From Vermamoeba vermiformis (Eukaryota), in NCBI GenBank assembly GCA_045837725.1, contig JBEWZL010000263.1:1-64000 (forward strand): a stretch of 64,000 nt of DNA. The letters run 5' to 3'. The position numbers were made by a program, and so were the translations under genes. Under the pieces are notes generated by a model. The model was not told the origin of the DNA. It saw only the letters and a program-made list of their open reading frames with translations, and made no database searches. This document shows, in pieces, positions 8,701 through 64,000 of this stretch (its first letter is position 1; each line of letters begins with the position of its first letter).

Positions 8701-8934
8701 TTAATCGCGGTTACGGCGCGTATGGCAATGACGGTCCGCAAGACGTAAGCAACACTTCCTTATAAGGACATAATAGGCACGTGAGCTAACAATGTTGTTT
8801 TGTAGAAACCGATGTACGAGTCAAGAAAGATTATGTCGTATGTTGACTTGGATGCGCCCCCAGATGACTCGATTGAACTCGACTATGCTAAGGCCTTGAA
8901 ACAATTTGCTGAGAAACAACAGCAAAATAAATAA
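5778..8934 (+). CDS. SRRT: SERRATE/Ars2 RNA effector homolog
   Basis: RD-rich N-terminus; FFNEHCKEEWFKERYHP; RRM (TLFIKTIPPS...RVGWITY); YIRRVHAYCYYC; zinc finger CALCDKLFKGPEFVKKHI; NYLSDPKR; C-terminal YVDLDAP. Confidence 0.93.
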
Positions 8935-19223: not shown

Positions 19224-22200
19224 TTAGTACTTCGATTGTGATAATTTTTTGACTACTTCAGACATCGTTGGTCGTTCTTCTGGATCCTGAGCCCAACACT
19301 GCGAGATCAGATCCCGCAACACTTGCGGACACGTGTCAGGAATTTGGAGACGCTTGCCTTGTATTACAAAATCAGCTACGTCCCAAGCATACCTGAATTC
19401 ATTATAAGGTTGCGCTTGTGCGATGATTGCCCACATGAGAATGGCAAAACTGTACACATCCGCACTTCGCTCGTACTTTTCGTTTTTCAAGATTTCTATG
19501 AAGCATTAGACGAGTCACAAGCATTCCATATGAGTCTGCTTACCGACTGCCATATAAGCTGGGGTTCCAACACCCTTTGTGAACTTGCTGGTCACTTGCT
19601 CAGTAGCAGATCGAGCAGTTCCAAAATCAGCAAGTTTGACGTTCACTATTGCATCTTTCGAAGTCGACACTACGAGCACATTCTCTGCTTTGATATCTCT
19701 ATGCAGAATATTGTTGCTATGAAGATATTCAAGCGCTTCTGCAATATCTTTGATAATCTTGAGTTTCAAGCCAAAATCGAGAGGTGGACCTTCCAACAGT
19801 TTCTGCAGACTTCCTTGCGACATAAACTCGGTCAAGATGGCCAATTTTCCAGGCACTCGAGACGCTCCGATGAATTGTAGAACGCCTTTGTGATGCAAGT
19901 TCATCATCATACGCACTTCTTGCTCGAACTCACGGTAGTACTCGGCTTCCATGTCTTGGATCTACAATGTCGTGGGTCAATACATTAACTGAGAGGACCT
20001 ATTGAGCACTTACTTTAAGAGTCTTATAAGCTACTATTTGGCCTTTGTAAATGGCTCGGAAGACTGCGCCAAAGCCTCCTTCACCGATGGCAGGGTATTC
20101 TGGCTTGACATCGTCGACATCGATCCACGTGGACGGCTCACTTGCGGCATCAAACTCGATCAATGTGTAGATGCTCTCCTCGGGTAGTTCGATCCAAAAT
20201 GACACTTTTGTCTTTGTGGTCATTGTGAGTGTCAAGCGAATGTTGACATCTGTTGACAGGCCGTGAGGTATCTCGAACACTTGAGGGTCAAACTGCAGTC
20301 TGTACTTTGGCGAGTTAACAGGTCTAAGCTGCACCACAGTTCGGTTGTGAAGTAATTTGTCGTAAAGAGAACCTTTCTTTGATGACTTGCCGAGTGACTG
20401 AATGTTGAACGAGTCAGTGGCCATTTGATCGACCACTAACAAATTGCCTCGTGTTCCAAACTTGAAGTTGGTCTTCGAGAGCTTAATAGGCATGTCCTCA
20501 AGAAGTTTAAATGTAAAATCTTCAGGCGGTGACGACTCCTTGTCGACGTGAGCTGAAGACAAAGTCAACATTTCCACACGGGACTTCAAGTCCTCGATGC
20601 GTTTTCGTCTTCGGATTAAGAACATGGTAAGCACGACACTTCCGACAATAAATATGGTGCCCAAAGGTATCACGATGCCGAGAATTAGCGGGTAGGGACT
20701 TTTTTCCGGTTCAGTGCAGCTGATGCTGGCTTGGATCGCATTTCCATTGACTTGCTTGTGCACGGTACACAAGGGATTGCCAATAGCCGTCACTCTGAAT
20801 GAACCTGCGGCTATACTTCCACATCGCGTGGAGAAGATGTTGAGGTTTGGAATCACGTTGCTGGTGTAGTCACTGACGTCCAGTTGAACTTCGCCTTCGA
20901 GTGTCAAACACTGAACGTTTACGACGTCCAGTGGCTTCATGATAAGTACACCTCCGTCTTCGAGAACCAGGTCTGTCGAGCGTTAGAACATGTTCGTAAT
21001 CTCATATTGCAAAACGTACTAGACAAGGAAGTCGAGTTGTCGTAAGTGACTACTGAGCCTGCAGGGACTACCAACGAGGATGAACTAGCGCAGTTATCTG
21101 GTGCCTCGTTAGTATATTCTTTTGCGTGGGTTAATGCAAACCTGTAGTCGAACAAATGTACGGGCGATTGGAGCAACAAAACGTGTTGTCACCCATGTTG
21201 CACGAGACACCAGGAGTTCCGTACATGAATTTGTCGGGTAGCGTAATACAACCGTACAAGTAGTTGCTTTTGACGTTAATTATGTTCAAACTAGCCACAC
21301 TGGACAGTGACGGCAATGTGCCAGTGAGTCGATTGAATGCAACCGAACTACAGAGATTCAATTAGACACTAGGGACCTAGGACTTAATGTGATGTGCTTA
21401 CTATTCGATAAGAGATCGAGAAGTTGCGATCTTTGACGATATTGTGCCTTGCAGTTGATTGTTAGACAAGTTCCTGTCATGACACGTTAGCGCTCTCTTT
21501 GACACCTGTCATTCATCAGCACTTACACCACTTGGAGCGGGATCGAATAGAGTTCGTCAGGTATTGTGCCAGTCAACATGTTGTTGTGCAAAAGTAGGCG
21601 TTGCAGTCCACGAGCCTTCGTCAAGTCAAGTGGAATAGTGCCGGTCAGTTGATTGTGATTGGCCGAAAAAGTCACCAATCGTGGTAAGTTGCCAATTTCA
21701 GGTGGAATTGTGCCAGTAAATTCGTTGTTATTTAGCAAGAGATGTGTTAATTGAGGCAGCTCGCCAAAAATCGCGGGAATTGTGCCCGTCAATCTACTTT
21801 GACCAACGTTGAATGTCTCCAATGCACGCAACGTTGAAATACTTGCAGGAATAGTGCCTGAGAATTGATTGCCTTGGGCACTAAATGTTGTTAATCTCGA
21901 CAGGAATCCAATGCTGTCTGGAATGACACCTGACAGCTGATTGTTGTCCAGCAGTAATGTCCTCAAGTTTGACAGTGTTCCGACCCACGTGTGAATGGTA
22001 CCAAAGAACTGATTGTGCGAGAGACCGATCCAAGCCAAGTTTTGTGCTTGATACAGCTGCGTCGGTATCGTGCCCGTCAGTTGATTAAAGTCCAGGGAAA
22101 TCGCGTCCAATAATTGCATGGCGTTAATAGTCGCTGGAATAATTCCCGTGAGCTGATTGTATTGCAAATATATTTGTCGGCATGATGACAGCTGAGTGAT

Positions 22201-23123
22201 GGTGTTTGGAATAGTGCCATTAAGCTGATTGGAGTGTAGATACAAATTTTGCAAGTTGATCAAATTGTTAATGCTGTCGGGGATCGTGCCCGTAAGTTGA
22301 TTACTAAATAAGTAAAAATGGGTCATGTTGACAAGATTTGTAAACATAGATTCTGGAATTGTGCCAGTCAATTGATTTTCGAATAAATGCAGTTGACCCA
22401 CGTTCGTTAGCTGACCAAATGACTCTGGTATAGTGCCTGTCAGATTATTTCGACTTAATGCTAATATTTCTATGCGTCGTAGTTGTCCAAGTTCTTCTGG
22501 AATTGTGCCTGTGAGTCGATTTGAAAATAAATGAAGCCTGGTTAGCTGCGTGAGGGATCCAAGTGACTTTGGGATAGTGCCGTGAATCATATTATTGAAT
22601 AAATAGAGTCCTACAATCAAACAAGAAAATAAATAAAAGAAATCACAATGGATGTCGGCATACCTAGCATTTGACTCATTGAGCCATACTCTTCGGGTAT
22701 TGTGCCAGTAAATTGATTAGAATTTAAGTCCAAAAATGCTAAGCTCGGCATCTGCGCAATAAAATGAGGCAGCGTTCCTGTCAGGGCATTCGAAGACAAG
22801 TAAAGCTGAGCCAATACTGTCAAATTTTTAAATGACGCTGGCAATGTTCCTTGGAGATTATTTGACGGTAAAGAGATCGAAAATACACGAGGCCCGTCAA
22901 CCCAACCACATTGGATGCCATACCAGAGACATTTTGATATTGAAATATTAAGCCAATTAGTCTGCTGAGTCCAATTTTGACCACTAGTTGCATAATAAAA
23001 TTCTCTTAATATTTCTAGCTCTGTGTCATTTGGATCGATCGGGATAACTTGTTGATCGGCGCAGATGGCGGGAGAATGGAGTTGTAATATTAGAACAACT
23101 ACAAATAAATATATTCCCCGCAT
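19224..23123 (-). CDS. LRR receptor-like transmembrane kinase (TKL group)
   Basis: Signal peptide; LRRNT (CLWYGIQC); about 19 24-aa LxLxxNxLTGTIP repeats; TM helix LILGIVIPLGTIFIVGSVVLTMFLI-RRRKR; kinase motifs GEGGFG, HRDIKAEN, DFG, DVYSF. Confidence 0.93.
21523..22870 (-). repeat. Coding tandem 72-bp LRR repeats
   Basis: Recurrent GGAATTGTGCC/GGAATAGTGCC units every ~72 nt encode the GTIP of 24-aa LRRs. Confidence 0.85.
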
Positions 23124-23238: not shown

Positions 23239-25463
23239 TTATGCGCTCTCAGTTTCAGTTTGTTGTATCTTTCTATTGAACTCGATCTGCTGCATGTATT
23301 TTGACACGGAGATCCAATGCGAGGTCTGCAGCTTCTTTACAGTCTTGCTGTTTGTATCAGAAGGCTTAGCATTGACTTTCAACATGCTGATCAACCACGC
23401 AACAGCACGAGAAACAACACTGAGCTTCTTGCGTGCAATCTTGTAGCGGTTCAACACATCTCGTTCAGCTGCGAATCTGTTGTTCAGTCGACCGATCCAC
23501 TTGAACATTTCACCTTTCACAATGTGCTCTATGTCGTGTGGCATGGATTCGAGGTTCGTTTGCTCGAGCACGTGACGTTTCTTGATCCACGCGGCCACTT
23601 CTTCTTGCAGCTGTTTCTTCAGGCCGTCAATGTCAACGCCGAACACGAGCTGTGAAATCTTTTCAGGCAACTCAGTGTCACCTTTATCGTGTCGAAGTAT
23701 CAAGTCTGACTCGATGGTTGTTACGTGGTGCAACATGTGGTGAATCTTCGAAGTGGAGTTTTCATCTTTTAACTCTGACGTGATGCGCTTCTCAGCCTCT
23801 TCTTTTGCTTGTTTGAACTCTCGTAACGCTGTTTGATAGACGGACCATGGAATCAGAGAAGCGATGGCTGTGAGTGCTGCTGCGGGGGTCATGTCGTAAC
23901 ACGTGTGAATGCCTGCTGTCTTGAGTAAGGTTAGAACGAGCACTAGAACGGTATCTGTGACTTACTGCTAGCGACACTGCGTAATCACTCGTCGTCACGC
24001 CTTCAATGCATTCAGTGCACACGAGCACTGGCAGCACTTGCATGTGATAGATGATGAATTCTTTCAACTCTGCTGGTCCATTGCCGCTTCCATAAGCCAC
24101 GAGGACAATCGCATCAGAGTCATTTTTCAGAGCATTCAGCGCGCTGAAACTGAAGCCGGGGTACAAATGAAACACGTGCACTTTTTCGCTGAGAAGGCGC
24201 AAGTGATTAAGTCTGTTTTCAGACATGCTCAAGATGTCCTCGTTGATGTCTTCAATCTGGGAGTCCTCCCAAACAAGTGTACCCGACGTCTCTAACTTGA
24301 CAGGATCTAATTTTCTATTGAAGGTTCGAAAGGCGTTGAAATTGTTGGCGTGAACTTTACGGATCTTCGCTGGATGCAGTAACTTGCCATTGAACCAGAC
24401 CCAGACCATGCCGATGCGAGGGAACTCATTCTGTCCTTGTTGGTGAATAATATTGATGGCTCCTATCAAATTAGACACTGCATCGCTGTTCGGATCGTCC
24501 CAGTGTTTCATGGATGCCGTAAAAATGACCGGGACTGGATCTCGTGGCAACGCGAAGTGCAGCGCTTAACAAATACATTAGGCATTGTATATTTTGACGT
24601 ACATGTAGTATGACTTACCTGCAGCTGTGTACATGAGAGTATCAGATCCGTGGATGACAACAATCCCTCGATACTTTGGGCGTCGTTCGTTAATCAACAC
24701 AGCGAGTTCGTTCCACTTCTGCGGCACCATTTTCGAGGAATCAATGCCCTCTGGGAACACCTCTTCCCACACCAGCTTATTCAGATCGAACTCCTAAAAA
24801 GGTAATCGTGGTTATATTGCAAAGTCGAGAAAGTTAAAATGGCAAGAGCCATAATTAATGTACTCACTAGGGTGGCCAGCAATGCTTGTCGGTCTGTTAA
24901 TCGCTGGCGAGATCTGGATCGCGATTTGGCTTCGGCAATTTCATCTTCAAATTGTTTCTTAAAAGCTGAGGAATGTTGTCCGCTTGCCAATTGATTATTT
25001 TCGTCGCGGACACTCGTAAGCGTACCGCCAGTATGCAAAATCAAGACCTAAAATTGAGATCAGGATCGCGCAAAGTAAGTAATCAATTTAGACTTACGGG
25101 AAGCTCAGCGCCTTCTAATGACTTCTCTATTAGGCTCGCCTGCTCTTCTAATTTATTATGAATGGCCTGTATTGCATCGTCTACTTGGGCTGCATCGGTA
25201 ATTATTTGAGTTCGGACTCCGCCTTTGTGCATCTCGTTTATGGATGCAGCAAGGGAGTCAATTTCACTTCGAAAAGTCGTCTCATCTATTGGTTTATCGG
25301 AATAAAATAATAAAAGCAAATTATCCTCGTAAGAAAAGAGCATATGAATCAGATCGAACGGAGGTATTTGCGCGAGACGTAAATTGTCGATTCGCGCGTG
25401 CAACAGCTGATATAAAGCTGAAACCCCGTTTTCAACGGATACTTTGAGCACTGTTCTATGCAT
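23239..25463 (-). CDS. Type I (cytosolic) asparaginase/glutaminase-fold protein with N- and C-terminal extensions
   Basis: LHTGGTLT, DSSKMVPQKW, VIHGSDTLMYTAA, RKVHANNFNAF, LYPGF, YGSGNGP, DMTPAAALT. Confidence 0.85.
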
Positions 25464-27354: not shown

Positions 27355-28877
27355 CTAGCTTAATAAGAAGCTAGTATTACTATAATCATCCAGTAATGGA
27401 TTAAAGCCCGACTTGGTCGTCAAGGAGTTGACCTTCAAACCGTAGTTGGTCATAAAATCATAGTTGGTTACGATGCTGCACGGTGCTTGCAGAATATTTT
27501 GAAATAAATTTGATAAATCTTGGAAATTAGTCGGAAAATAAATGTCGCAGCCGTACTTTGGCGAGCTCTTCAAGCTGTAGTACTCGATCGACCTGCCGTT
27601 ATGTGTCCTATGTATAACGGGCTTATTCTTGTGTTTCTGCGGCTCATCTTCGGTGTTTGGAAAGTGTTCGAAGTCTACCAAGAGCAGATGTGGTCGCGCG
27701 AATCGTTCTTTGATCATTTTCAGCAGTTGTATCGATCCAGAGGGCACCCAAACCGATTTGTATTGCTTATTGTCGCATATAGATAAATATTCTTTGATAA
27801 TTGGGTCCGTTACTTCTTCATCAATCATTTCTATCGTTGCATCGTAGCGCAGATCCCGCTGGTTAATAAGCCGAGGTGATTCAATGTCGCGCACCATGAC
27901 TTGTCTAAATACACCTCCCTTCTTAATGACATAATCATGTGGCAAATTGTCTAGCAGCTACAATAGTAGGACACATTAGCAAGCATCTTTAAAACGCCGA
28001 TCTATCAGTGTAATTACCTCCAAACCGATTACAAAACATTCATCTTGTATTTGCTTGTTCCATATCAATCCGTCGATATTATGCACGTTAATTTTGCCGT
28101 CAAATTTGCCTTCAAATCGTTGTTGAAGCATAGCTGCGAATTTAGGACTGATTTCAACGCAGTTGTATGAGGTCCGCTCGTAGAGCTGAGGTTGATATTT
28201 CTTCAAATAGGACATTATATGATATGCGCTTCCTCCACGACCAGGTCCGAATTCGTAGATTACCAGTGGTTGAGTACTAAGTTTCAGGTTAGTTTTTGAG
28301 ATCCTCAAATTTTTGTAAGGCTTACTTTGATTTGCTTGATATTTGCATAAACTTCTTAGCGATGTAATTGGCTATGGAGTGTACATAAAGACTGCCAAAG
28401 AACTCGCTTGGTGTTCGCCAGCCAGATCCACTGTTTTGTTCTCTGCAATGAAAAATGTTAAAAATCGGAAGAGGTGTAAAAATTAATAAAAGTAACTTAT
28501 GACCGACGCAAATGACATTGATTTAATTTTCAGGTGTCATGTAACAAATCAAATTGAAAATTTTATCAGATCTGTGTTGTGCCATACCTAAACCATTTGC
28601 TCACTTCTTTAATATACTCTTCTTTATCTTGTAAATATGGCACAATGGAGAAATCGAATTTTTTGTCGGCTCTATTGTTAATAATATCTGCTCTTTGCAT
28701 AAAATATCCTTTTTCGAGATTATACAGCGAATCTTGAATCCATTCACGCATTAATTGATAATCTTTCTTTGGTGCACTATTATTTGCCGCAGTACTACAA
28801 TTTCTTGCAATTTGTTTTGGAGATCGAGTAAGTTGACGACGGAGGAACGCTACTGAGACTAGTCCTCGTGCAAACAT
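27355..28877 (-). CDS. MidA/NDUFAF7-family mitochondrial SAM-dependent methyltransferase
   Basis: Mitochondrial presequence; MREWIQDSLYNLEKGYF; WRTPSEFF; IYEFGPGRG; YNCVEISP; LLDNLPHD; CDIYFPTNF. Confidence 0.85.
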
Positions 28878-29102
28878 TGTGGTGCATGCAAGTTAATAAT
28901 AAATATGTTATATATGAACTGTACGTAGGTAATTATGTTGAAAATGATTGACAGGGATATTTTCGTGTTTTTGGTTCAAAGAAAGGGTTGTGACGTCGGC
29001 CAAATTTAATTTTGCATACTAAGGCCTAACAGCCACCACAAGGATCAGGTATAATTGTACATAGTATAATTGTAAATTTAGAAATACCTGCATCTGTGGA
29101 AA

Positions 29103-32100
29103 ATGAACACCAAGCTGGAGTTGACGATCAAAAATACAGAGCAGCGATGTAAATTAACTGATTTAGATATCAATGTAAATATCACTGGATTTTTAAGCAA
29201 GACGTCGGTTACAATGACGTTCTTGAACGAAACTGACTTGGATTCTGAAGGAGAGGTAACCTTAACATAATTGAACAATATTTTTAGCGAGTATTAACGT
29301 GTTATCATTAACAAACCAGCTCGTTTTTCCAATGCCAGAAGGTAAAATGAATATTCTAATTTTCAAATAATTTTAGTCTTGACTTACCTCGTCGAATCTA
29401 CGTAGGCGCTGCTATAAGCGGTTATGCCGTCGATATTAACGGAGAACTCGTTGATGGTGTCGTAGTCGAGGTACTTAGCAAGCTCATATTTGTTATTCTG
29501 CGTTCTGAACATTTTCCGTTGATAGAAAGAGAAAGCTCGGATCACGTTCGAAGCTGAAGCAAGAAGTGTTGAAAAACCATCTGCTTCAATTGTAGAGCAT
29601 GTAGTAGGCAACGTTTTTCGTACAAGAAGTAAGTTTTGATGCTTAAATACAGCAGATCTGATCGGTCTTTTCAGTTACTCCATTACCTAAAAAGGCAACG
29701 AGAATCATTCGGGTATCATACGTTGAAGAACTTACTCCGATCTCGAAATCTCAGCAAATCAAATCAGCAAACAAGAATCAAAGAGATGTGCAGTGGAAAC
29801 TGTCGCTCGAGAACATCGGACCTTTGAGCACACTTGCAATGAATGCGATCATCGCTGGCGGCGGGGCACCACGTGTTCGATTTGACGGTAATACTGTTGG
29901 CTCCATTAAACCACTGCCAGATGTTATTGGGCCTGTGGCATGGCGTTTTAAGTCCGAGAACTGCACCATCAAACAGTACGTGACGAATTATTTTTTGGCT
30001 CACAAGCGCATTATTAACACCACTGGACTTAGGGGCTTTGAAATAGACGTGCCTGGTGTAGCTTCACAGATAGTCGAAGTTGATGAAGACAAACAACAGT
30101 ACTTTGTGCTGAACGATGACTTCTCGTCAGGTACGCGTAGTTAGTAAGTGTCAATTGAGCTAACTCATGTTCAGAATTCAACTTCAACGAGTCTGTGATG
30201 CAAGCTGATCGTGTCGCACTCTTGTGGGACGCATCAAAGTCACGTGAAGTCCGCAACGAAAAAGACGTTCAATTGATCAAGACTTACGTGCAGAAGGTAA
30301 GAATGCGATTGTAACTGCTAGTAACATATCAACTAATATTACGATAGCTGTCGAACATCGTCATTGACTTGATCGTCTTCCGCGACACTTCTGAAGAGCT
30401 CGTGACATTCAAACTTGTCAACGGCAATGCTGCGCCATTAATCGAATATCTTAACAAGGTACGCACTAATAGTGACATCTAACCAAGGTATTCTAATAGT
30501 GTATGATAGATACCATACATTGGAGGCAGTAACTTGGGTCAATTGTCCATCACCAAGACAGTGCCCGTGCAAATCAAGGACGGTGAAGAGATTGTCATTA
30601 GAGACACGTACAACTATTACTTGATGTTCACTGACGGCTTGCACAACTTGTCTTTGAACTCCACGCCTGAGAAGCTTGAAGCCCCTGTGTACATTTTTTC
30701 TTCTTCGACACTCTCTGACGGCACCCTGTTGAAAGTGTGGGGTAAGTCACATTTGTATTATAAATCCTTGATATATACTTAATATATTCTCGCAGCACGT
30801 AAGAGCGGTGGTGAATACTTCGATCTGAACTCGACCTCGTCAAGCACGTCAGAGATTGTTTCCAAATTAGGCAATACCAAGTTCCAGTACTTGTTTGCCG
30901 AGATTGACGGTGCCGTTGTGAGCGAAATTTACCCGTCGTTGCCGAGTCCTATTCAAGGCAAACAGTTCACCATTGCTGGCAAGATCAACGGTCAAAATCC
31001 CGCGACAATTGCTTTGGTAAGAAAAATTGATAGTTTTAAGCCTTATTAACATCGTGCTCGTATAGAATTATGGTTACGGAACACTTGTCACTCGGCGAAT
31101 GAAGTTCCAAATCAATCCTGCTAGTGCGCTGAAAAACAACTTGGCTGCAAGGTACTGGGCTCAAAAGAAGATTGACGAGCTTCAATTGTTCCCTGAAGTC
31201 GCTGAAAATGAGGCCAAGATATTGAGCGTAAGACTAACTCATTGAGCCAAAATCAACTTTGACACGCTCTAACAGCCCTATTTTTAGATCGGTCAACAAT
31301 ACAACATTGTCACGCCAAATTCATCCTTGATTGTGCTTGAAAGCCTCGATCAATATGTCAAGTGTAAGTATAACTAAGAGTGTCTTAATAGCGTGTTAAT
31401 AATGAATTTTGGGCAGATGAAATTGAGCCGCCAAAGAGTTTGCCCGAAGTGCGCAAGAATTACTTGGAAATTATGAAGAACCGCAAGCAACAACAATTAG
31501 AGCGCGACAACGAGAAGATATTGTCAGTCGTGAGCTTTTGGCAACGCAGAGTGGCGTGGTGGAACGAAGACGTGACGTCACCTGAACACAGCGAGCCTCA
31601 GATCCAACATCACTTTCAGTTTGGATTTTTCAAACCTGACGTGCTTCAAGTGGCCCCTAAAGATGTGATTGATCTCAAACAAGCTGATTTGAACGACGCA
31701 CTGCGGCAAAAGATCGTTGAAGATGAGGAAGAAGAGAACAGAAAAGCAATTGAAAAGCAACAACAAATTGAAATGCCTCATCTTGAAGAAGTTGTGCAAG
31801 AACAAGAGATGATTGCCGCGAGAGATAACGAGATCAGATTGATCGAGCAGGACGTGAAAGAACTCAACGAGATGTTCAGGGACATTAACCAACTCGTGCT
31901 CGAACAGGGCTCATTGATCGACCAAATTGAATCCAACATAGATAACTCCGCTATTGACTTGGGCTACGATAAATTTGCAGCCCCACCACCGCCAGAAGAA
32001 GCAACATGGGGCTTTGATGAGGACCTTGATATCCCGCACTCGCACGAAGAGTTCGCTTATGCAGATCCATTCGCGGACTTGACGACTGCTGCCGCTGCTG

Positions 32101-35100
32101 CACCGCCACCAATGAGTCCAACCGGCAAACGCGAGTACGCGAAAGATGAAGAAAAGCCGAGATCTGAAGACGAAAACGCTGGTGCCTTTGGTCTATTCAG
32201 CGATGAAGATGACAGCGGTGGTGCGCTGTTTGGGGAGCCTGTTCCCGCGAGCTATAGTGATGCACCGTCCAATCCGTTCTTCGATAGACCCACCCCTTCA
32301 CTGTTATCCTCCTCGTCATTTCTAGATTTCAATGCGCCTGCCGCCGAGATCGCTGCAGCTCCTGTTGTTCGACAATCATACGCAGCCCAAGATGCTTCGT
32401 ACATTGACAATTCTTTCACAGGTAAGTACTCTAATGATGATATTAATACGGCATTGGACCATTGTTAAATTCTTACATATAGCGTCATATGATGCCTTTG
32501 ACGGTGATTCAGAGAAAATGGACGACGGAGCTTCGTTCGAGGGATTTACTTATCAGCCCCCCGAACCCAAACCAGCCCCCAAGCCAGAACCTGTTTTTGA
32601 ACGCACAATCAGCAAGAACGAAATGAAGAAAAAAGCGAAAAATCTCGCGACTGGGTAAGATAATAACGTTGTTATTAAGGCATAAGATTTTTAATCCTGC
32701 AGACAAAGGAAAAAAGAGAAAATGGAAGAGGAAAAAACGAGCACAAAGGCGGTACGCAAGCCTATCCAATCGTTCGCTGCAAAAGAAGTCGAACCAGCCA
32801 AGCCCGCGAGACACAGCTCGAAGAGGCAAGTCCTGATTGGTACTGCTATTGTGGTTCTAATATTTCACTCTCAGGGACCTCAGCACCACCGAGACTAAGT
32901 CAACCACAGTGCTGGGCAAAGGTAAAGATGCCGCTAAGAAACCTGCTGGGGCCGCTATTCCTTCTCAAGCACCCCCACTGCCGTCACAGACCACTACTCC
33001 AATAACGAATCAACCTACTCCAATGGGTCAACCTAGCTTCTACGGGGGTCAGCCACCTCCACCACCTGCTGCAAAACCTTACCCCGCTGCTGCACCCTCT
33101 GCTTACCCCGCTGCACCCGGCGGAAGTGTCCTGCCTCAGTCAGCGCCAATGCCAATCGTGCCTGACTCCGGTCAAGAACGATTCAGAACTATTTCTTCAC
33201 GCTCTCGTGGTAGTATAGCACTACAAAATGCTCAGCTGATTGCAGAGGAGTCTGATTCTATTGGCCGTGGTACTTTGGACCAGTTGCGGTCACAGAAGGA
33301 CACGTTGAACAATATGAAATACAACATTCGAGCTGCGGATGAAGATGTCCGTCAAGGCGTCACGGAGTTGAAACAAGCTGAACAGCAGCAAAAGAGCTCG
33401 TGGTTCGGTGCCCTAAAGAACATTAAATTGGGCGCTGACGTTGGTGGTTTTCTTGGAGGCAAACGGAAAAGTAAAGATATGCCTGCAATGACTCTCCCGA
33501 CAATAGGATTCAATAGTGAGCCTGTTTCGGCGAACAGAAGGCGCAATACAAGACAAGTCCAACTTGAAAGACAAATTGATGACGTCAAAGAAGTCATGGC
33601 CAAGAACATCGATCGAGTGCTCGATCGTGGAGAGAAAATAGAGAGCCTAATTTATAAATCAGAAGCACTATCCGGTGAATCTCAGATGTTCTACAAAAAA
33701 GCTTCTCAACTCAAAAGATCTTACCGATTCAAAAAATATGGTGGAGGTAATTGCAAATACTATCGTAACCATCTACCACACGATTAACACCGTCATTGCC
33801 ATAGGCTGCTTGATTTTGATCTTTTTACCGTTCATTCTGCTAGTCAAGTTTGTCATTTGGGCGGTGACACGTGTCAAGAAGGTCATGAACAACAGTTGGC
33901 CAGAGTACGAACAGTTATCTGACACACCCACCGTTATCACGAAGTACCTGCCACTCACTCATAACGCTGTTACTGAACCGGTCTATTTCACGCCAACCTT
34001 GCCCTCGGTGCCAAGCGAATTACCCTCAGACGAGTACTTTAGCACTTTGTTGAAGGCTCAAGATGAGGTCCAAACTCAACTGAACACCGCTGCGGCACCT
34101 GAGCCTGAGACTGACACTACTGTGAACAAGACCGAGAAGGGTTAGTAGTTATTAGATAAGCCCAATATAGTCGCTAACAAGGCCTTCTAGTCGACCCCAA
34201 GATGGCGTGGGTTAATTGGCACGCACGACAAGCGCAGACTTGGAAAGAGTTTGAACAGAAACACTTCACGACAGGCCTGTGCTTCATGCAGAAATGGAAT
34301 GAAGTCCGCGTTGGCCAATTGCAGCGCGTGTTAGGTACGTCAAGTATTCATGCTCAGGCCTAATCAGGGACCAATTTCTCGCATTGACGTTAATTACAAA
34401 TTCATTGTAGAACGAGAATTGAAACGAGTGGATGAAGAGTTTAACAGCACTAAGACCGATTTGGCGTTCTATAAGGGCGATGAGCGCAAGACTGCGTCAA
34501 TGGAAGTGCGACAAGTAAGGCTTAGCAATGTGAAATTCGAAATTTGAAATTCGGTCCAGATCAGACCTTGTTTTAACTTTTTTTCTCAGAAGTGGAAATC
34601 GAGAGAATTTTATATGTCGGCTATTGAAACTCTGGATAACACCTCCGAAGACAACCAGATCCACGCTCAGATCTTGGCCATTCAAAAGCGTGAACACGTT
34701 CATGAAAAGCTTTCATCGTTTTACATCGACGCCGCGCAATTTTTGTTCGGTCGCGGCAGGATTCACGAAGGCGCTACTATTTTGTCGACCTTAGCTGAGA
34801 TTGACTTTGAAAATCCTCAACTACTCAGGTAATTTACTTCACGAAATTAGAATTTCAGATACCGATGCTAATATCCTTTTTAGGGCCATGGCAATGAACA
34901 CGGATCACATCCCGCAGTTGGATCACATGACGGAAGCTCTCTACCGCCAGATATTGAAGCTCAGACCCGATGAACCGCAATCATACACTGATTTGGCCGC
35001 GGTATTGGCACGACGCATTTTCCGCACCATAAAAGGAAATACTGCTACTTCAACACGTGATTCCAAACTGCTTGCCACAGCTAACGAGGCAATGGAACTC

Positions 35101-35734
35101 TACAAGCAGGTCATCGTCAAGAAATGGGACGTGCGTTGGTGTCAAGTCGAGTTGACGGCCTTGTCTGAAATGAGCCGACTCGCTCACTTTGTGCAGTGGA
35201 TGGGACTCGATCAGTCATCGATGGTAAGCCTACAAAGACTATATTACTATCATAATAGTACTTACGATGCCGGCATTTAGGTGAATATTGACCGTCGCTT
35301 GGTTCAGTCCATTATGGATTTGGACTTGCACGTGATGATTCGCTGGGATACTGATCTGACCGACGCAGAAATAGTCGTCACGTAAGTCGATAGTCACCAT
35401 TTTTATACATAGGACTAATATGTTTCGCAGTGAGCCATCAGGTGAAGTGTGCAATAGCTTCCATAACAAGACAAAGACTGGAATGCTCTCGCGAAATTTC
35501 ACGTGCGGCTATGGACCGCAAGAGTATTGCGTCAGAACAGCGCAGCCAGGACGCTACAGAATTGAAGTACGCTTGTTCGGAGCCCCGCCCGCCGCTCCGC
35601 CAACCACTGTGACGGTCCGTGTTACGACTGACTGGGGCAGACCGGTGACGCAAGTGGAAGAGTACCACGTTATTCGATTGAATAAGGTCAAAGAGGCCGT
35701 GCATGTGATGGACGTGAACTTTAAAGAGTTGTAA
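29103..35734 (+). CDS. VIT-vWA-[Qa, Qb-like and R SNARE motifs + hydrophobic helix]-TPR-DUF2135 multidomain protein (about 23 exons)
   Basis: VIT: [41 protein letters not shown]. vWA: LLWDASKS, MFTDGL, ARKSGG, followed by YWAQKKI and [12 protein letters not shown]. SNARE motifs at about 31800-31960, 33200-33400 and 33545-33745. TPR-like/DUF2135 C-terminus: LRPDEPQSYTDL, IRWDTDLTD, EPSGE, FTCGYGPQEY. The exon junctions from 31363 to 34590 were checked for phase. Confidence 0.88.
32826..32874 (+). other. GC-AG intron
   Basis: AG|GCAAGT donor, CTAAT branch point and TCTCAG acceptor. Phase-2 splicing joins ...HSSK-R-DLSTT... in frame. Confidence 0.75.
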
Positions 35735-36473
35735 AATAGAGTACATATAAATCGCGTAGAACCCTTGCGGCTAAACTCATGGATTCTGAGAGTAACGATG
35801 GATTGCAATCGCGGAAAACGATCGCGAGCATTTTTACGTCTTTAATATCGCCAGATTTACCATCGCGACTTTCAATTTATATTAGCCGATCCGTTGTATT
35901 TTTGAATGAAATTCGCTTTCTTTATTTTTGCCTGTACGCTATGAAAATTCGAACTGGAGAATCATTGGAGCACGTTGATATCAACTAATTTTTATTTGCT
36001 ATGATTGAAGAAGTTTACTATTTTATAAGGATTCGTAATTTGACCTAAAATAAGCTTCGTGCTGATCCAATTTCAGATCTAAAAAGCGAACATTATTTGA
36101 ATTCAAAAAATCTTCATCTAATATATTTCAATAATAGTTCTACTTGAATAGGACATTCTCCAATTATGGGCAAAGATTTGGGCCGCATCTGTCTGAAATA
36201 GGGTCGCCGTTTCGACTTGAGAGCTGCATTTAGCATGTGCTCCTTTTTTTGGTCGAAAGGCGTAGAAAAGATTCATGAAATTTACCGTAGCTTTTTGGCA
36301 CAGATTTCTTAATTTGTAAAACCTTTGATTGGCTTAAAAGCAAAAACTTTTCAACATGACTCTTTCAATTTCAGTTTCCGACGGATAACAACTGCTCTCG
36401 GGTGTAAATTTTGTAAATATAACCATTACTCCTTGTACATAAGCAATCTCCGACGCGGATCTGATTCGAAACA

Positions 36474-43915: not shown

Positions 43916-45518
43916 TTATTTCTTCGGCCGATGACGAACCACGTAAGTGTTCTGCTCCAAATTGACGAGTTTCTTTGCGAGCTCTTCTTTGACAGCCGTT
44001 GAAGTGTTCTCTGAGATGTATTGAAGGAACCGCAGTGATGTCAAGCGCGTCAGTTCTCTGCCGTCATTGGTGCTGTGCGACACGGACAAGAACGTCAATC
44101 GTGTCAGCACACTCAATGCAATCACATCGTCGTCGCGGTGCAAGTTAGTAATGGCGAGCTCCTGCAGCTTTGTCATGCGTGTCAAGCTCTGCCACAAAGT
44201 GTCATCGTAATTAGCGATGTGCAAGTCCGTGAGGTGAGCCGCGTCAAGTTGATTGAAATCCATTATATTGCCTTTCAGTGTAAGGAGTGCTAACCCACGC
44301 AGGGCTGACACGTTGTTCAAACGAGTGCACTTGCTGATCACGCACAGATGTGTCAGTCTGCTCAAAGCCTGTAAGTCCAAGGTTGCAGGGATGTTGGAGG
44401 TGCGATCGGTCAACGAGAGGTGGTGCAAGCGTGTCATAGTTGAGATGACTTCAACATTGTTGCCAGACTTGTAGGTCAACTCCAAGTATTCTAGTTTCGT
44501 CAGCGGTGCCAAGACCATCAAATCAGCATCCGTCACGAGAGCTGTGTCCAATTTACGCAAGTTTGTCAAGCGCGACAAGAGTGCTGTGTCCTCCAGATCG
44601 CAATCCTCTTTGGGCACCAACTTCAATTGTCTCACGTGGTCGGATTGAATGTACCGCAACACTTTCATCGACGGTGCTGCTGTTATGAGCACCTCTTCTA
44701 AGTGCTTGAGTGCAGTGAAGTGCGACAATTGTTCTGTGTCTTGGTTCCAACCTCCACTCAAGGACTTTAGTGTCGTCAAGCCGGACAATATCTCTAAGAA
44801 GTCATCGCTGGCACCTATCACCATTAACGAGGTCAATCTCGTTGATGACACTTTCATCGCTGGACTGATGCGCAGCTCTTCCAGATTGGGCAAATTAATC
44901 TCCATATTCACCTGCCTAACCCGCAGTACAAGAGACTTTAGATTAGTAAACTTTGCTAGATCAAATGGCTTGTTCGTATAGTACAGTAGTGAGGTTAATT
45001 TTGTGGTGCTGACCGCTGCCAGGAGTGGATCCGCAAGCACGTTACTGATGCTGAGTGACTGTAGAGTAGACAAACTATCAGGGACTAGTAAGTGCCGTCC
45101 ACCAATGACCTCTGAAAGTGATAGATGTGTCAACTGTGATTGTTGTAGCAGCCATTCAGCTGGCGCAGAGTACGCAGACAAGATGGCGCAGATTCGTTAC
45201 ACCTTCTAACGAGGGGAGCATCGAGGGATAATACAAAGTCGTTAAATGAGATAAAGAGTCCAATAGTCCGCCAATAGCGGAGAGCAAGCGGGCCTGCTCG
45301 AGTCTCAGGCTGAAAGGTCTCGTTCGCTTCATTAACGTGTCGCGCAGTTGATCAGCATTTTCTGGAGTAACAGCACAATATATAGTAATGTCGTTGTAAT
45401 TAATTGTTATTTCCCATTCTCTGCACACTGCACGAGCTAGCCTTCTTGCTCTATCTTCAATCAAATAAGACAAAATCGCTTTGATAATTTCTTTGGGAAG
45501 TGTCTGCATGAAGCGCAT
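43916..45518 (-). CDS. F-box + leucine-rich repeat protein; apparent frameshift or cryptic intron near 45181
   Basis: F-box MQTLPKEIIKAILSYL...RAVCREW, followed by repeated LxxLTxLxxLxL units. Confidence 0.8.
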
Positions 45519-47175: not shown

Positions 47176-50100
47176 TTACAATGTGCTAGGGAAGTTAGCA
47201 ACGTTAATCATCTGCTCTTTTTGTTGTCCGTTGAGCGAGTACTCCAATCTCACCTTCATCAACAAGGGCTTTTGACCTTGTAGCGTGTTCTGTACTTGCA
47301 TTGTCTGTGTCACCTTGCTCATGTTGTTAGGAGGCAACAAAGTAGATGAGGCAGGGTTGAGGGCCAAGTTGATGTACTTGGGCACGGCCGCTTGCAACAC
47401 AAAGTTGTTAACAGGGAACGGGTTGCCGTTGGTGTAAGTGGCAGTGACGAGTGTGTCTTGAGGCGAGGACTTGGAGAAGTCGAAGGTGATGTTGATGCCA
47501 TCGCCAGTCCAGACAGGCATCGTGGGGAACTGAGGAGTGGCTGCAATTGGGGTTGGACCACCGAGACCCAAGAGACTCATCATGTCGGGCAAGGGTTGAG
47601 GTGTGGGGACGGGACCAGTGGGCATGCCAAGACCAGGGGTAGGGTTGGTGTTGACAGGGCTGCCACCAAAGATTTGACCGAGAATATCGGTGTCACTACC
47701 CACGCTCTTCGTGCCCGGGTTAGTGCCGAGGTTGGTAGAAGGTTCCAAGCCCAAAATATCAATGAGAGGATCACGAGCAACAACAGGTTGTTCTCTGTGC
47801 TCAACGACTGGTGTGCCGTCACGTCCTCCACGACGCATCTTAGTCTCACCAACAGGTTGGTTGGCTGGTGCTTCAGGGCGTTCAGGAGCAGGCATACGAT
47901 CCAAGATAGTGCCCTTGATGTCGTTCAATTCCATCAGCTGGCTGTACTCCACTGAACGTTGTTGCAACTCCAAGTTGATTGAGCCTTGGTACTTGCTGAC
48001 CAATTTGTGAAGGGCACTAAACGCACGTGTTAATTATTGTCCAAAGGTCAAATAATGCAGTACGTACTCTTGTTGAGCAGCGCTAAATCGGCTAGACAAC
48101 TTGAGCAAAGCAGTCAAGATAAACTTCTTGCTGAGAGTAGTGGTGACAGGGTTCTTCAAAACAGCGCGCATCAAGTTGACAACATCTTCTTCAGTGACCT
48201 TGATGGACTCTTCGCCGTCTTCACCGCCGCTAGGAGTGTTGGCAATTAACAAATCTCCGAACTCACCAATGCACCAAACACCCACGCGAACAAGTGCTTG
48301 CTGTGGTTAATTACACGTAAGTCTCGCGCCTAAGAAACAAGTGTCAACGCCACGTACCTGTGTTGAATCTTTAGTGAGGGCCAAGTACATCTTTTGTACG
48401 GCGTAGGCTTGGAGCTCGGGAGTGAGCGAAATGATAGAAATCATGTTCGAAGCGACTTCTTCAGGGACGTATTGCCCAGCCTAGCATACAAGTTATTAGC
48501 ACGTGATATTGTTATATTAGTATGTGCACGTACGATTGACATAATTCGAACAATGGTATCGATGTGCCATCTCTTGGTGGGTGCGTATTTCTCAGTAACG
48601 AAGCAGAGCTTTTCGGTCAAATCAGCCTTGAATTCTTGATCGGCAACCAACAAGTAGTTGAGCAATTCGCGGACCAAGACCTTCACACTCGATTCGTTCA
48701 CGAGGGCGTAAATCAACTCCAAAGCTCTCTTGCGGATAGAAATATCGGGGTCCTAAAGACATCACGTTAACGTCCAATCAGATGTAGCTAGATGTGTGCC
48801 GTACCTTCAAGCACTCGACGACTGTGTTTCTGTGTTTTTGCACTGCTTCGATGTCAATGTTGACGACCTTGTTCAAAATGTTCAAAGCGACGTAGCGAAT
48901 ATTGTTGTCGCGGTTAGCCAAAAATCTGCCCAAAATGTTGATAGCCAAGACACGCAAAGCACTCTCGGAGTCAATGGACATGATGGTGTTGACGCACTCG
49001 TACAAAATTGCGTTACCAACATTGCGCATGTTGTCAGTGTTCGTGGCAACTTGAGCGAGAATGTCATTCATAGCGTCACTAGCATCGGCGCTGCCAGTGC
49101 CCAAGATGCGCAAGAACTTCAAAATTTTGACTTGCAAGAACGGATCTGTGATGCCGCTCACGTCGTACTCGGGACTGTAACCAAATTGAACCAAGCTCTT
49201 CAAAATACGAACCAATTGTTGCACGATTTGACCCTACGCGGCCATAAGATATTTGCATAATATTGATTTATATCGAGCACTTACCTCACGGAACAAAGGA
49301 ATCAATTTGGGTTCCATGTCACACATCTGGATCATAAGGGTGACACCAGTGATCAGTACACCATGGTTCTTATCGACCAACAGTGACTTAACGCGGGGCA
49401 CAAAGTTCTCCAAAAGCTCGGGGACTTTCTTCAAAATTCTGGTGACGCTCAAAGCGGCCTAAAATGTGATCTGTAAGCCACGGAAATTTTGAACGAAAAA
49501 GCTGCGTTGAACCACGATAATATTTATGAGCATAATATTATAGAATATATTAAAATAACAATTTGCAAACAAAAAGGTGACAGTAGTAGGACGTGACATA
49601 AAAAACGGAAAATAAAAAATATTATCTGAAAAAGTTTCAATTTGCCGGCCTACGTCAGCCTTTGCGATTTAATATGACGCGTTGTATTATCTCGTAGTGT
49701 GAATACTTCAATTTAATGATATTAAAATTTACCTTCTTGCGGATGTAGGGATTTGAGCTGCTGAGGAGCTGTTCGACCAAAGGGGCACAATCGCGGGCAA
49801 TTTCGATAGAACCAATATTACCAATAGCAGCAAGTGCCAAACCGACGATATATTGATTGCTATTACGAAGATCCCTATAAATATTGAATCAAGGAGAAAA
49901 ATTTTGTTTGAAAATTGAAAATTAACCGCTATATGAAATAATATCATAAATAATTCGTATAAATACTAGGTGATGTAATATTATCAAAATTGTAAGGATA
50001 CTGCGTGAGTGAGTTTGTGACCAACATCAGCACTTCTTGGTTTTCATCCAACAACAACATCAAGCCCAAATAGCCAATACGCTTGTCAGAATATGATCCA

Positions 50101-62290: not shown

Positions 62291-64000
62291 ATGCAAGCCG
62301 TCACAGTCCCCAAACGCGATAAGGTCCTCTTGGAGCGAAAGGGAGTGGATGCGACTACGACAATCTTCATCGAAAAAGGACGCACAGAGCCTCGTCGCGA
62401 CACTATCTTCTTAGAGTACCTCAACAACAACACTGGCGATGCTATTCGCGTGGCCAATCACAACAATCAGATTGCTAAGATCGTCAGCTTCATTCAACAA
62501 TGCATGGCTGGTCAAGTCAACTTGCCTTCGAACGAGCGAGCAATCTTCGAGCTCGAGAAGTGGAACGCAGACATGGACAAGTACGTGCTCGAGCACCCCA
62601 ACCTTGGTACTGCCATCACTCGCACTATCGAAGACGCCCAGAACGTTTTGCGCGCCTTCATCCCAGTGATCCGCAACATCAACAAGGGTGATCACTTCCA
62701 AAAACTCACTCATTACGCTGCATTAGAAGCCTATTCTGCCGCCAAGGCCAAGTAAGTACTCGCGATGCAAATCGTTTCAGAAAGGCGATCTATTTTTAGA
62801 TGAAATTTCAGTACTTTATTTTGGTCGCCTCCCAAACAAGCAACTTTCAGACCTATTCAATCAAGTGTGTTAATCATGTTTGTTACAGCGAGAACAAGGT
62901 TCGCACCTCCAAGAAGACACGAGTTGTCAGCCGCCGCGAATCCAGACGAGCTCAAAAAGATGCTCGTCGTATGGGCAAAGGTCTGAGTGTCGCTGCTAAG
63001 CAATTGGTGCTTAACCGCAAGATGAGACGCATGGTTCTTGACTTGGTCGACATCATTCAAGATATCATTTATGCTGGTATGGGCAAGAAGGACAAGACTC
63101 AAACCACCGTCACTGAGACCACCCAAACTACTACTCAGACCACCACTCAAACGGTCGCCACTACCATGCCTTATGTCTCTATGACTCCCTCTACTGACAT
63201 GAATGCTCAAGCCACCGTTACCACTACTGGTTATGATGGCAGCGTTCTCGTCGAGAGATTGCCCGTGCAACCTTTGCCCACCACTGGCTACGCCTCAGAA
63301 GTCTACGTTGCACCTGTTGCACCTGTTCAAATGTCTGAGACCATCATTCAAAACATCACCACTGAAGGTCAACAACCTCAAGTCGGCTCCACCATCACTC
63401 AATCCAAGGTCATGCGCAGAATCTCCCCTGAGCACCGCAAGGAATTGGCTCGCAGAATGTTGCGCATCTTGACTGAATTGAACAAACACGACGATGTTGC
63501 CCGCGGTATCCGCTCCATGATCAAGTTGATTGACGTCGGTGTCAACCTCGCCTCCAAGAACACCAAGAAGGTCGCCCACAAGGGCAGCGAGCTCAAGGAA
63601 ACCAACTTGCGTCTTGCTTGGGACGAATTGATGGCTCTCTTCGGCTACTTCGCTCCCAACGGCGACATGAAGCTCATCCTCAGAGACAGCAAGCACCTCA
63701 TCAACTCTTTCCGCAAGGACGAGCGCACTCGCCACATTTTGCGCGAGTTCCGCGACTTGATTGAAAGCAGCTTGAAGCATCCCGATCGTGTCAACGAAGA
63801 GGAACTTGTTTTGCGCATTGAGCGTCTCATCGACGATACCACCAACTTGACTGAAGACTACGTCAACAGATCTCGCGCTGTCTTGAAGCTCTGGGGTCGT
63901 CTCTTCAAGAACATCGAGCGCGATGAAGAGTTGTTGCGCTTGCAATCTTCCATCAACCGCTTCTTCGAGAACATCTTCCCCGTCCAGCACGGCCGCCCTG
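62291..64000 (+). CDS. Large helical protein, possibly HAM1/DUF4449-type N-terminal region (3' end outside window)
   Basis: AGQVNLPSNERA...IEDAQNVL...INKGDHFQKL resembles the G-x-LPSN / KN-x-D-xx-Q pattern of that family. The gene shows highly-expressed-type codon usage and continues through an intron to the window end. Confidence 0.45.

Follow-up and report, generated by a model that had tools for sequence, protein, structure and literature searches.

SNARE motifs usually fall cleanly into the classes Qa, Qb, Qc and R, each of which has a fixed place in the bundle. The locus described here raises the question of whether a single SNARE helix can belong to one class over its first half and to another over its second. 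The locus lies in a window of 64,000 nucleotides, this being the whole stretch of Vermamoeba vermiformis DNA that was analysed (contig JBEWZL010000263.1). An earlier note on this DNA had read the second SNARE motif of the gene as a chimera, with a Qb-type front fused to the syntaxin tail missing from the first motif, and had judged that this fits a patchwork bait better than a conserved fusogen. The peptides and places that it gave for motif 1 and for the two halves of motif 2 proved correct (Table 1).

Table 1. Coordinates of the gene and of its features in the window.
Feature	Position	Strand	Residues or size	Details	Basis
Whole gene	29103..35734	+	1,820 aa (conceptual product)	22 exons, 21 introns	
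Backbone N block, VIT + VWA-like	29103..31586	+	aa 7-631		Pfam, blastp
Motif 1, Qa SNARE	31812..31961	+	aa 707-756	IAARDNE to NIDNSAIDL	PDB search, AlphaFold2
Linker, low-complexity	31962..33172	+	~350 aa	4 exons	Translation, motif scan
QERFR[TK]IS[ST]R motif	33173..33202	+		Conserved; just upstream of motif 2	4-member alignment
Motif 2 N-half, Vti1-type Qb	33215..33292	+	aa 1122-1147	Layers -7 to -1; IALQNAQ to DQLRS	
Motif 2 C-half, syntaxin-type Qa	33293..33406	+	aa 1148-1185	Layers 0 to +8 plus tail; QKDTLNN to QQQKSSWF	
Linker, motif 2 to R-SNARE	33407..33535	+	43 aa	Gly-rich, basic KRKSK stretch	Alignment
Motif 3, full-length R-SNARE	33536..33746	+			Pfam Synaptobrevin, 2.2e-17
Intron, R-SNARE/TM helix boundary	33747..33804	+	58 nt	Frame kept	
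TM helix, predicted	33807..33866	+	aa 1300-1319		Kyte-Doolittle
Intron with apparent stop	34141..34190	+	50 nt	Holds TAG 34143-34145; TM/tail exon joined in frame to downstream exons	
Backbone C block, TPR-like region + DUF2135	34701..35731	+	aa 1531-1820		Pfam, blastp

Gene model and transcript evidence

The gene model was built by hand, and its translation contains no internal stop before the stop codon at 35732-35734. Introns are 44–76 nt long, with 20 GT-AG splice sites and a single GC-AG one, the latter in intron 14 (32826-32874), as determined from reads. Evidence for splicing came from the X5 contigs, which derive from the run of a relative, and from raw RNA reads (X21–X23); at least 16 of the 21 introns are backed by RNA among the rows listed (13 joints and 3 in the table of X5 and raw reads). 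The raw RNA runs carry the same species label and are 90–95% alike; their depth is absent over 31724-33993, which was counted neither way. The intron that separates the R-SNARE from the TM helix is supported by the X5 joint 33700>33803, between the ends of which the letters diverge, and in P0004 a spliced model spans the corresponding place. The TAG at 34143 was considered as the end of the gene and ruled out, as reads place it inside an intron: the joint was found in 5 reads of X21, 1 of X22 and 9 of X23, and an X5 contig of 1,521 nt, spanning 33817 to 35699, crosses it.

A SNARE cassette within a bacterial-type backbone

The outer parts of the product resemble a 924-aa 'VIT domain-containing protein' from the Deinococcus sp. 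QL22 plasmid NZ_CP097151.1. In blastp, residues 7-631 matched bacterial residues 8-562 (E 2e-40) and residues 1531-1818 matched bacterial residues 660-924 (E 3e-33). Pfam matches of the first exon to VIT and VIT_2 were both below cut-off; the match to DUF2135 was above it (29.8 against 22 bits). The N and C blocks are collinear with this one bacterial protein, which places the gene among the VIT-VWA-DUF2135 proteins, but the distance between the blocks is ~97 aa in the bacterial linker and ~900 aa here, where three SNARE helices and a TM helix intervene, and the intervening cassette is therefore read as an insertion. As predicted from sequence, the cassette is a succession of Qa motif, disordered linker, hybrid helix, R-SNARE and TM helix inside a VIT-VWA-TPR-DUF2135 backbone.

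The low-complexity linker following motif 1 is rich in proline, alanine and acidic residues and contains WGF, DPF and NPF motifs; because of this composition we infer that it is disordered. In the shorter linker between motif 2 and the R-SNARE, pLDDT (AlphaFold2) is below 50 and PTIGFN is invariant, within T[LI]PTIGFN. All 24 PDB matches of motif 3 at E≤1e-3 are R-SNAREs, the best being VAMP4 (2.1e-9), and its zero-layer residue is, in our reading, arginine. Neither Pfam scans nor the translated product revealed a Qc motif in the gene, and Pfam scans of the ORF pieces found no syntaxin N-terminal family or Habc domain. In the Kyte-Doolittle profile of the whole product the predicted TM helix is the one stretch above 1.6. 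A TM helix in mid-chain would place the two halves of the backbone across the membrane from each other, which is unexplained and is counted against our reading.

The NCBIfam scan of 13 backbone exons yielded nothing useful, the backbone piece preceding the cassette had no match among plasmids, the scan of genome contigs found nothing, and a weak search for longer homologous proteins found none. Two loci were retrieved from the metagenome scan, both matching the R-SNARE part alone; one of them (L001) is a VAMP of ordinary build that has an N-terminal domain. The literature search found no paper on the gene, on a SNARE motif combined with a VIT domain, or on DUF2135.

The second motif combines two SNARE classes

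Judged by the profile matches of its two parts, motif 2 (33215-33406) is one SNARE helix with a Vti1-type Qb first half and a syntaxin-type Qa second half. It sits in the frame of ORF 32861-33787 and forms a heptad helix with 16 layers and a glutamine at the zero layer. The alignment of four family members runs over 64 residues without gaps, all 16 layers (-7 to +8) being hydrophobic or small, and the zero-layer glutamine is invariant (4/4 members) and aligns with that of Stx1A. AlphaFold2 predicted one unbroken helix over residues 12-82, with pLDDT of 82-93 at the junction. The earlier suggestion that SNARE fragments had been joined in heptad register is thus borne out by the gap-free alignment and the single predicted helix.

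The N-half alone matched a sole Pfam family, V-SNARE_C (14.1 bits, E 0.061). An exhaustive search of 1.84 billion representatives returned one real match outside the family, a Vti1-like protein aligned to query positions 7-60. The local HMM of the N-half scored 22.4 bits against the Vti1-like protein (24.1 bits against its SNARE segment alone), a score attained by 0 of 1000 shuffled sequences, and 0 or below against the Qa proteins available. Motif 2 matches Vti1-type Qb motifs (PF12352 V-SNARE_C; PDB 1gl2_C, 2nps_C) from layer -7 to about +1, sharing with them the small residue at layer -3 (G or A in motif 2) and the glutamine at layer 0. However, the Qb profile is left unmatched over its final third: the window alignment covers positions 9-51 of the 66, and in all four members the V-SNARE_C alignment ends at position 39-52. 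Motif 2 also differs from Vti1-type proteins in having neither the N-terminal Vti1 domain nor a directly adjoining TM helix.

The Qa-like part begins at about layer 0/+1. The C-half alone had its sole Pfam match in PF05739 SNARE (23.5 bits, E 5.7e-5), a family that is not specific to Qa. Single-sequence halves were too short for PDB searches (no match for the C-half, one non-SNARE match for the N-half), and therefore a profile was used for the C-half; it is shallow, being built from four family members (Neff 1.8). At E≤10 it gave 25 matches: 20 natural syntaxin chains, 3 EsxB chains and 2 single-chain t-SNAREs of artificial design. Chains of class Qb, Qc or R were absent, in a database that is not known to cover several Qb and Qc groups and that over-represents Stx1A. 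The best match was Stx1A (E 3.5e-4), with the zero-layer glutamines aligned. The local HMM of the C-half scored 12.1 bits against the Qa motif of the relative P0007 (15.5 bits against the segment), which 0 of 1000 shuffles attained, and 0.0 bits against the Vti1-like protein (segment 1.0), within the shuffle null. Likewise, hhalign placed the C-half in register with the family's own Qa motif at P 6.5e-4, as compared to P 0.32 for Vti1. As a control, a true Vti1 C-half of equal length matched V-SNARE_C at 31.1 bits (positions 34-66), with PF05739 absent, and in the PDB retrieved Vti1a (4.7e-5) and Vti1b (2.5e-3) and no syntaxins.

The C-half is in register with syntaxin Qa motifs (Stx1A, Stx13 and the syntaxin-type chain 5buz_C) from the zero-layer glutamine to the Y-Q-x-K end, its layer residues being L, M/I, I, A, V, G/A, L, A, as compared to I, I, V, A, V, A, T, A in Stx1A. 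The tail reads A-x-x-Q-Q-K-S-S-W-F in the window and conforms to the family signature A-x-x-[YQ]-Q-K-[KS]. Motif 2 as a whole is nevertheless unlike a syntaxin Qa, since its N-half is not Qa-like, no Habc domain was seen, and it is followed by W-F, the Gly-rich stretch and a basic patch instead of a TM helix, the sole TM-like stretch of the product lying after the R-SNARE. Scored apart in Pfam and the PDB, the two halves did not share a best match to one Qb or Qc family. The Pfam matches of the halves, the C-half profile, the half-HMMs and the Vti1 controls thus uphold the view of motif 2 as a Qb-type front with a syntaxin tail.

The same dual Pfam pattern (V-SNARE_C and PF05739) is common to the window, P0001, P0002 and P0004. 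In two distant members the C-half is better kept, with 16–19 of 38 residues identical to the window, than the N-half (8–9 of 26). Since the hybrid is free of gaps and retains its layer residues in relatives that are 40–50% identical, it is probably old and has been maintained, and it looks like a working part rather than leftover debris. A patchwork bait, as opposed to a conserved element, does not agree with the presence of the hybrid in all four members found or with that of the motif 2 exon in spliced contigs from the relative's run.

The first motif ends short of the membrane-proximal layers

Motif 1 has a glutamine at its zero layer. At E≤10 it drew 44 matches from the PDB, led by syntaxin 7 (E 1.5e-8); Tlg2, Stx13 and Stx1A are among the others. 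A search with the Qa exon retrieved two relatives alone, with no reference syntaxins at E≤10. The motif ends at about layer +5 and GYDKFAAPPPP comes next. Its lack of the usual syntaxin ending after NIDNSAIDL, pointed out in the earlier note, was confirmed: the alignment to syntaxin 7 covers only positions 6-52 of the 65 in that chain, the tail being absent, and in the AlphaFold2 model of an 86-aa piece the helix stops at residue 73, about layer +5. P0007, however, keeps the continuation of motif 1 to about +6/+7, its alignment to Stx1A reaching chain position 71 of 83, as compared to 62 in the window. By comparison with P0007, the window and P0006 have a gap of 2 residues and then PPPP. Therefore, the truncation in the window appears to be a later, local decay.

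Alternative explanations

The possibility that motif 2 is a divergent, lineage-specific Qb of Vti1 or Sec9/SNAP-25 type throughout, its syntaxin-like C-half being due to convergence or chance, draws on several results that count against a hybrid. The language-model Atlas set both halves nearest to V-SNARE_C clusters (0.85 and 0.89), although these scores fall under the tool's own 0.9 line and its accuracy on protein parts has not been measured. In the PDB, the best matches of the whole motif are Qb proteins, Vti1b (E 0.098) and Sec9 (E 0.23); the Sec9 alignment takes in query positions 13-67 and so reaches into the C-half. For P0002 Vti1b (0.076, aligned over residues 137-190) ranks above Sso2 (0.29) and Sso1 (1.3), none of these being significant. 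Moreover, the whole 81-aa piece clears the V-SNARE_C cut-off (28.6 against 27.1 bits; 25.3 bits on the ORF). A Qb motif throughout is nonetheless rather unlikely, given that the V-SNARE_C alignment halts early in every member, that the C-half alone lacks the V-SNARE_C match which a real Vti1 C-half gives, that its profile finds syntaxins and no Qb or Qc chain in the PDB, and that its HMM score against Vti1 stays in the range of shuffled sequences. The least probable is the proposal that a captured syntaxin was split by a later insertion, motif 1 being the front part and the tail of motif 2 the severed end. The absence of layers +6 to +8 from motif 1 of the window, the Qa-type end of motif 2 and the register of the C-half profile with the family's motif 1 would all agree with it. 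However, as motif 2 is Qa-like from layer 0/+1, layers +1 to +5 are duplicated rather than continued; the two motifs overlap by ~19 residues instead of abutting, with 4 of 19 overlapping residues identical (hand count), and the continuation of motif 1 kept in P0007, together with the local nature of the truncation in the window, indicates that the tail of motif 2 is not the piece missing from motif 1.

The cassette might instead serve as a decoy (bait) or as an inhibitory module of the i-SNARE kind, absorbing a partner SNARE or a SNARE-targeting pathogen factor without fusion. PMC2171956 describes i-SNAREs that form non-fusogenic complexes, and a decoy would agree with the sharing of a single membrane anchor by three helices, with the truncation of motif 1 in the window lineage and with the failure to find a Qc motif in the gene. 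Conservation of the layer residues fits a decoy and an acceptor alike but contradicts a patchwork in decay, and we regard the decoy as improbable. The roles of fusogen, acceptor and decoy cannot be told apart by sequence.

A model for the origin and function of the hybrid

The explanation that we prefer to all of these, and consider somewhat more probable than not, is that motif 2 is a natural in-register Qb/Qa hybrid, recombined once as the cassette formed and selected since, in a single chain that supplies three strands of a bundle completed by a Qc. The hybrid would go back to a single event in which coding sequences of Qb and Qa type recombined with their heptads in register, at or soon after the entry of the cassette into the interdomain linker of the VIT-VWA-TPR-DUF2135 backbone, and selection would have kept it since. 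One chain would contribute its three helices to a four-stranded SNARE bundle, the hybrid taking the place of the Qb; a Qc SNARE of another protein would be the fourth strand, and the membrane anchor is borne by the R helix alone. Because motif 1 ends at +5 in the window lineage, the membrane-proximal end of the bundle would be three-stranded there, which points to an acceptor, tether or regulator and away from a full fusogen. Among the possible roles, we favour a single-chain Qa/Qb/R acceptor in need of a Qc partner. More tentatively, this acceptor may have been grafted into a membrane-spanning VIT-VWA-DUF2135 scaffold, with the hybrid providing the Qb strand plus a syntaxin-like end, to be triggered by a lone Qc that is cytosolic or sits on another membrane; the version in this form is doubtful.

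A conserved class switch at the zero layer would mean that the halves of SNARE helices can evolve or be exchanged as separate modules, which bears on position specificity in N-terminal assembly as opposed to C-terminal zippering. The host gene is itself unusual in carrying three SNARE helices and an anchor in a scaffold otherwise known from bacteria and, if the model is true, the single-chain three-helix acceptor would represent a novel type of device for fusion or tethering.

Comparison with known SNARE systems

A close parallel in helix classes is the yeast Golgi t-SNARE Sed5/Gos1/Ykt6, which pairs with the Qc Sft1 as v-SNARE in a 3+1 topology (PMC2171956). There, as would be the case here, Qa, Qb and R helices on one side await a Qc, but Sed5, Gos1 and Ykt6 are three separate proteins, whereas the helices described here are borne by one chain with one anchor in an unrelated scaffold. 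The SNAP-25/Sec9 family likewise has several SNARE motifs per polypeptide, the Qb-type motif coming first, and a flexible linker, which here would be long enough for a parallel return. Motif 2 does not belong to a Qbc protein of this kind, as the linker leads on to an R-SNARE instead of a Qc, with a Qa motif upstream and a TM helix downstream.

Class of the second SNARE motif

The second SNARE motif (motif 2) appears to be a hybrid helix, Vti1-like (Qb) in its N-half (33215-33292, layers -7 to -1) and syntaxin-like (Qa) in its C-half (33293-33406, layer 0 to +8 plus tail). As a whole it retrieved only weak Qb matches from the PDB (Vti1b, E 0.098, query 11-60; Sec9, E 0.23). When 1.84 billion representatives were searched exhaustively with HMMER, five matches reached E<=1e-3: three family members (P0001, P0002 and P0004), the Vti1-like protein P0005, whose match was confined to query 7-60, and P0003, which was rejected as a low-complexity artefact. 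In Pfam, the N-half matched V-SNARE_C alone (14.1 bits) and the C-half matched PF05739 SNARE alone (23.5 bits, E 5.7e-5), a family that is not specific to Qa. The V-SNARE_C alignment ends at profile position 39-52 of 66 and that of PF05739 spans positions 2-34 of 53 in the window product and the three other members.

When the four C-halves were combined into a profile (alignment A3), 25 PDB chains matched at E<=10: 20 natural syntaxin chains (17 Stx1A constructs, Stx13, squid syntaxin and 5buz_C, the last counted as syntaxin-type from its alignment in the motif 1 search), two designed single-chain t-SNAREs and three EsxB. Qb, Qc and R chains were absent from these matches, in a database not known to hold every Qb and Qc group. 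The syntaxin alignments are in register from the zero-layer Q through the Y-Q-x-K end. With local HMMs cut from the family alignment A2, the N-half scored 22.4 bits against P0005 and <=0 against Qa proteins, the C-half 12.1 bits against the Qa motif of the relative P0007 and 0.0 against P0005. Neither 22.4 nor 12.1 bits was reached in any of 1000 shuffles, and the score of the C-half against Vti1 falls within the shuffle null. The whole-motif HMM aligns to Vti1 at positions 2-35 and to Qa at 27-58, which places the class switch near the zero layer. By hhalign, the C-half profile aligns in register to the family's own motif 1 (P 6.5e-4), and to P0005 over nine columns, one heptad off (P 0.32; offsets hand-counted from the zero-layer Qs). 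A 43-residue true Vti1 C-half gave V-SNARE_C at 31.1 bits without PF05739 in Pfam, and Vti1a and Vti1b with no syntaxin in the PDB; both resources are therefore able to recognise a Qb C-half.

Two results argue against a Qa-type C-half. In the Atlas feature search both halves lay nearest to V-SNARE_C clusters (138-150 shared features), with scores of 0.85 and 0.89 that are below the tool's own thresholds, its performance on protein parts being unmeasured. When whole P0002 was compared with the PDB, its motif 2 region ranked Vti1b (E 0.076, residues 137-190) before Sso2 (0.29) and Sso1 (1.3), none of these matches being significant.

Motif 2 aligns over all 64 residues with no gap in the four members, a shallow family profile, with conserved layers -7 to -1 (L/M, A/V, A, S/T, G/A, T/V, L), 0 (Q) and +1 to +8 (L, M/I, I, A, V/S, G/A, L/I, A). 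In the distant members identity is higher in the C-half (19/38 and 16/38) than in the N-half (9/26 and 8/26). AlphaFold2, given the family alignment, predicted motif 2 as an unbroken helix from residue 12 to 82, its middle part at pLDDT 82-93, and a separate R helix, with no confident packing (pTM 0.28). Flanking motif 2, QERFR[TK]IS[ST]R (33173-33202) is near-invariant in four family members, and PTIGFN, within T[LI]PTIGFN (33491-33514), is invariant in all four.

Origin of the hybrid helix

The SNARE peptides quoted in the earlier note are present where it had placed them. Motif 1 matches Qa SNAREs well (best PDB match syntaxin 7 at 1.5e-8, then Tlg2, Stx13 and Stx1A), but its alignment with the 65-residue Stx7 chain is limited to positions 6-52, and its predicted helix (AlphaFold2) stops near layer +5. 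Motif 3 is a complete R-SNARE (Pfam 2.2e-17), and its 24 PDB matches at E<=1e-3 are all R-SNAREs.

The proposal that motif 2 carries the tail missing from motif 1, as would be left by a split syntaxin, did not hold. The Qa-like part of motif 2 starts at layer 0/+1 and motif 1 reaches +5, so the two overlap rather than abut, and only 4 of 19 residues in the overlap are identical (hand count). Moreover, the Qa exon of P0007 (64% identical) keeps its own continuation, extending to Stx1A position 71 of 83 (1sfc_B) versus 62 in the window. Relative to P0007, the window and P0006, another Qa-exon relative, have a two-residue gap followed by PPPP; together with that continuation, this indicates that the truncation of motif 1 is a later, local decay. 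In-register recombination between Qb and Qa sequences would fit the hybrid better than a split syntaxin. No intron lies at the junction of the halves in the window gene model, and P0001 and P0002, both ORF-level proteins, read through it uninterrupted.

Bacterial-type backbone and inserted cassette

The first exon gave a weak VIT match and the last exon DUF2135 above the cut-off (Pfam). Searching plasmids by tblastn with the last exon turned up matches in three bacterial records, two of which annotate the matched gene as a 'VIT domain-containing protein'. A 924-aa Deinococcus protein is collinear with the window product, aligning at residues 8-562 with product residues 7-631 (E 2e-40) and at 660-924 with 1531-1818 (E 3e-33). 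Between these blocks lie ~97 residues in the bacterium versus ~900 in the window, where the SNARE cassette is found.

Features of the SNARE gene and its neighbourhood
Feature	Position	Strand	Remarks
Qa SNARE motif (motif 1)	aa 707-756		first in insert
~350-aa linker	31962-33172		between motifs 1 and 2; Pro, Ala, acidic residues; WGF, DPF, NPF motifs
Motif 2	aa 1122-1185		after ~350-aa linker
43-aa linker			between motif 2 and R-SNARE
R-SNARE (motif 3)	aa 1229-1299
TM-like helix	aa 1300-1319		sole one in protein
Post-TM stretch			~210 residues, last in insert; first 91 form the conserved segment
GC-AG intron	32826-32874	+	intron 14; donor GCAAGT; revealed by spliced X5 contig
50-nt intron	34141-34190	+	contains apparent stop TAG at 34143
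Adaptin C-terminal domain ORF	47176-48033	-	Pfam 2e-25; ~12 kb downstream of gene
SERRATE/ARS2	6449-8748		neighbour
LRR proteins	21523-22716; 43916-45196		neighbours
Asparaginase	23792-24565		neighbour
Methyltransf_28	27355-27957		neighbour
F-box	1956-2609		neighbour
HAM1-like N-terminal domain	62800-63999		neighbour

Motifs of the kinds present in the long linker are known ligands of endocytic adaptors and EH domains, a role they may have here. The post-TM segment 33867-34139 would be lumenal or extracellular on the predicted topology. It is strongly conserved in P0004, its last ~18 residues being near-identical, whereas the SNARE part is only ~42-46% identical.

Relatives in the collections searched are a handful (P0001, P0006, P0002, P0004 and P0007), P0001 and P0006, both listed with a longest contig of 6,346 nt, being taken to come from one contig. 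Nothing resembling this SNARE-in-backbone architecture was found in the literature searched. Each part by itself belongs to a known kind, and the novelty lies at the level of variants, in the class-switching helix and the overall architecture.

Possible mode of action

The single chain would contribute a Qa helix, a hybrid in the Qb position and an R helix but no Qc; each of the three has the zero-layer residue expected of its class, and the 43 residues separating motif 2 from motif 3 would allow the chain to return in parallel. Endosomal or TGN types are the closest PDB matches to the three helices (Stx7/Stx13/Tlg2, Vti1 and VAMP4/VAMP8), and at the yeast Golgi a Qa+Qb+R set that takes up a Qc forms a known fusogenic topology (PMC2171956). 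On these grounds our preferred reading of the cassette is a putative acceptor of three helices in one chain, which a Qc SNARE would join. A regulatory, tethering or inhibitory role would be at least as likely as fusion, given the one anchor and the short motif 1 in the window's lineage. The acceptor reading does not account for a TM helix between the two halves of the bacterial-type scaffold.

Gene model and splicing

The region is eukaryotic, with short ORFs joined by introns of 44-76 nt that have GTAAGT-like donors, CTAAC-like branch sites and YAG acceptors; the GC-AG intron is the sole one of the 21 with a non-GT donor. The 22 exons, from the ATG at 29103 to the stop at 35732-35734, encode an uninterrupted product of 1,820 aa. 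Splicing was assessed from reads and contigs of four runs: at least 13 of the 21 introns were seen as joints and three more in a second listing, the evidence in all these cases being X5 contigs and raw RNA reads X21-X23. Run X5 comes from a relative, mostly 90-99% alike; its 'RNA' label is a guess, yet its contigs lack introns. The X21-X23 reads over 29000-35800 carry the same species label as the best-matching DNA and are 90-95% alike to the window, none >=99%; they probably derive from a diverged strain, haplotype or paralogue.

Splicing of the 50-nt intron, which carries in-frame TAG TAG, links the TM and tail exon in frame with the downstream exons, and its joint is present in 15 raw RNA reads from three runs and in one X5 contig spanning 33817-35699. 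Overlooking this intron makes gene callers stop the protein at TEKG, and the database model P0004 is one such case. Retention of the intron would yield a shorter VIT-VWA-SNARE protein ending ~90 residues past the TM helix.
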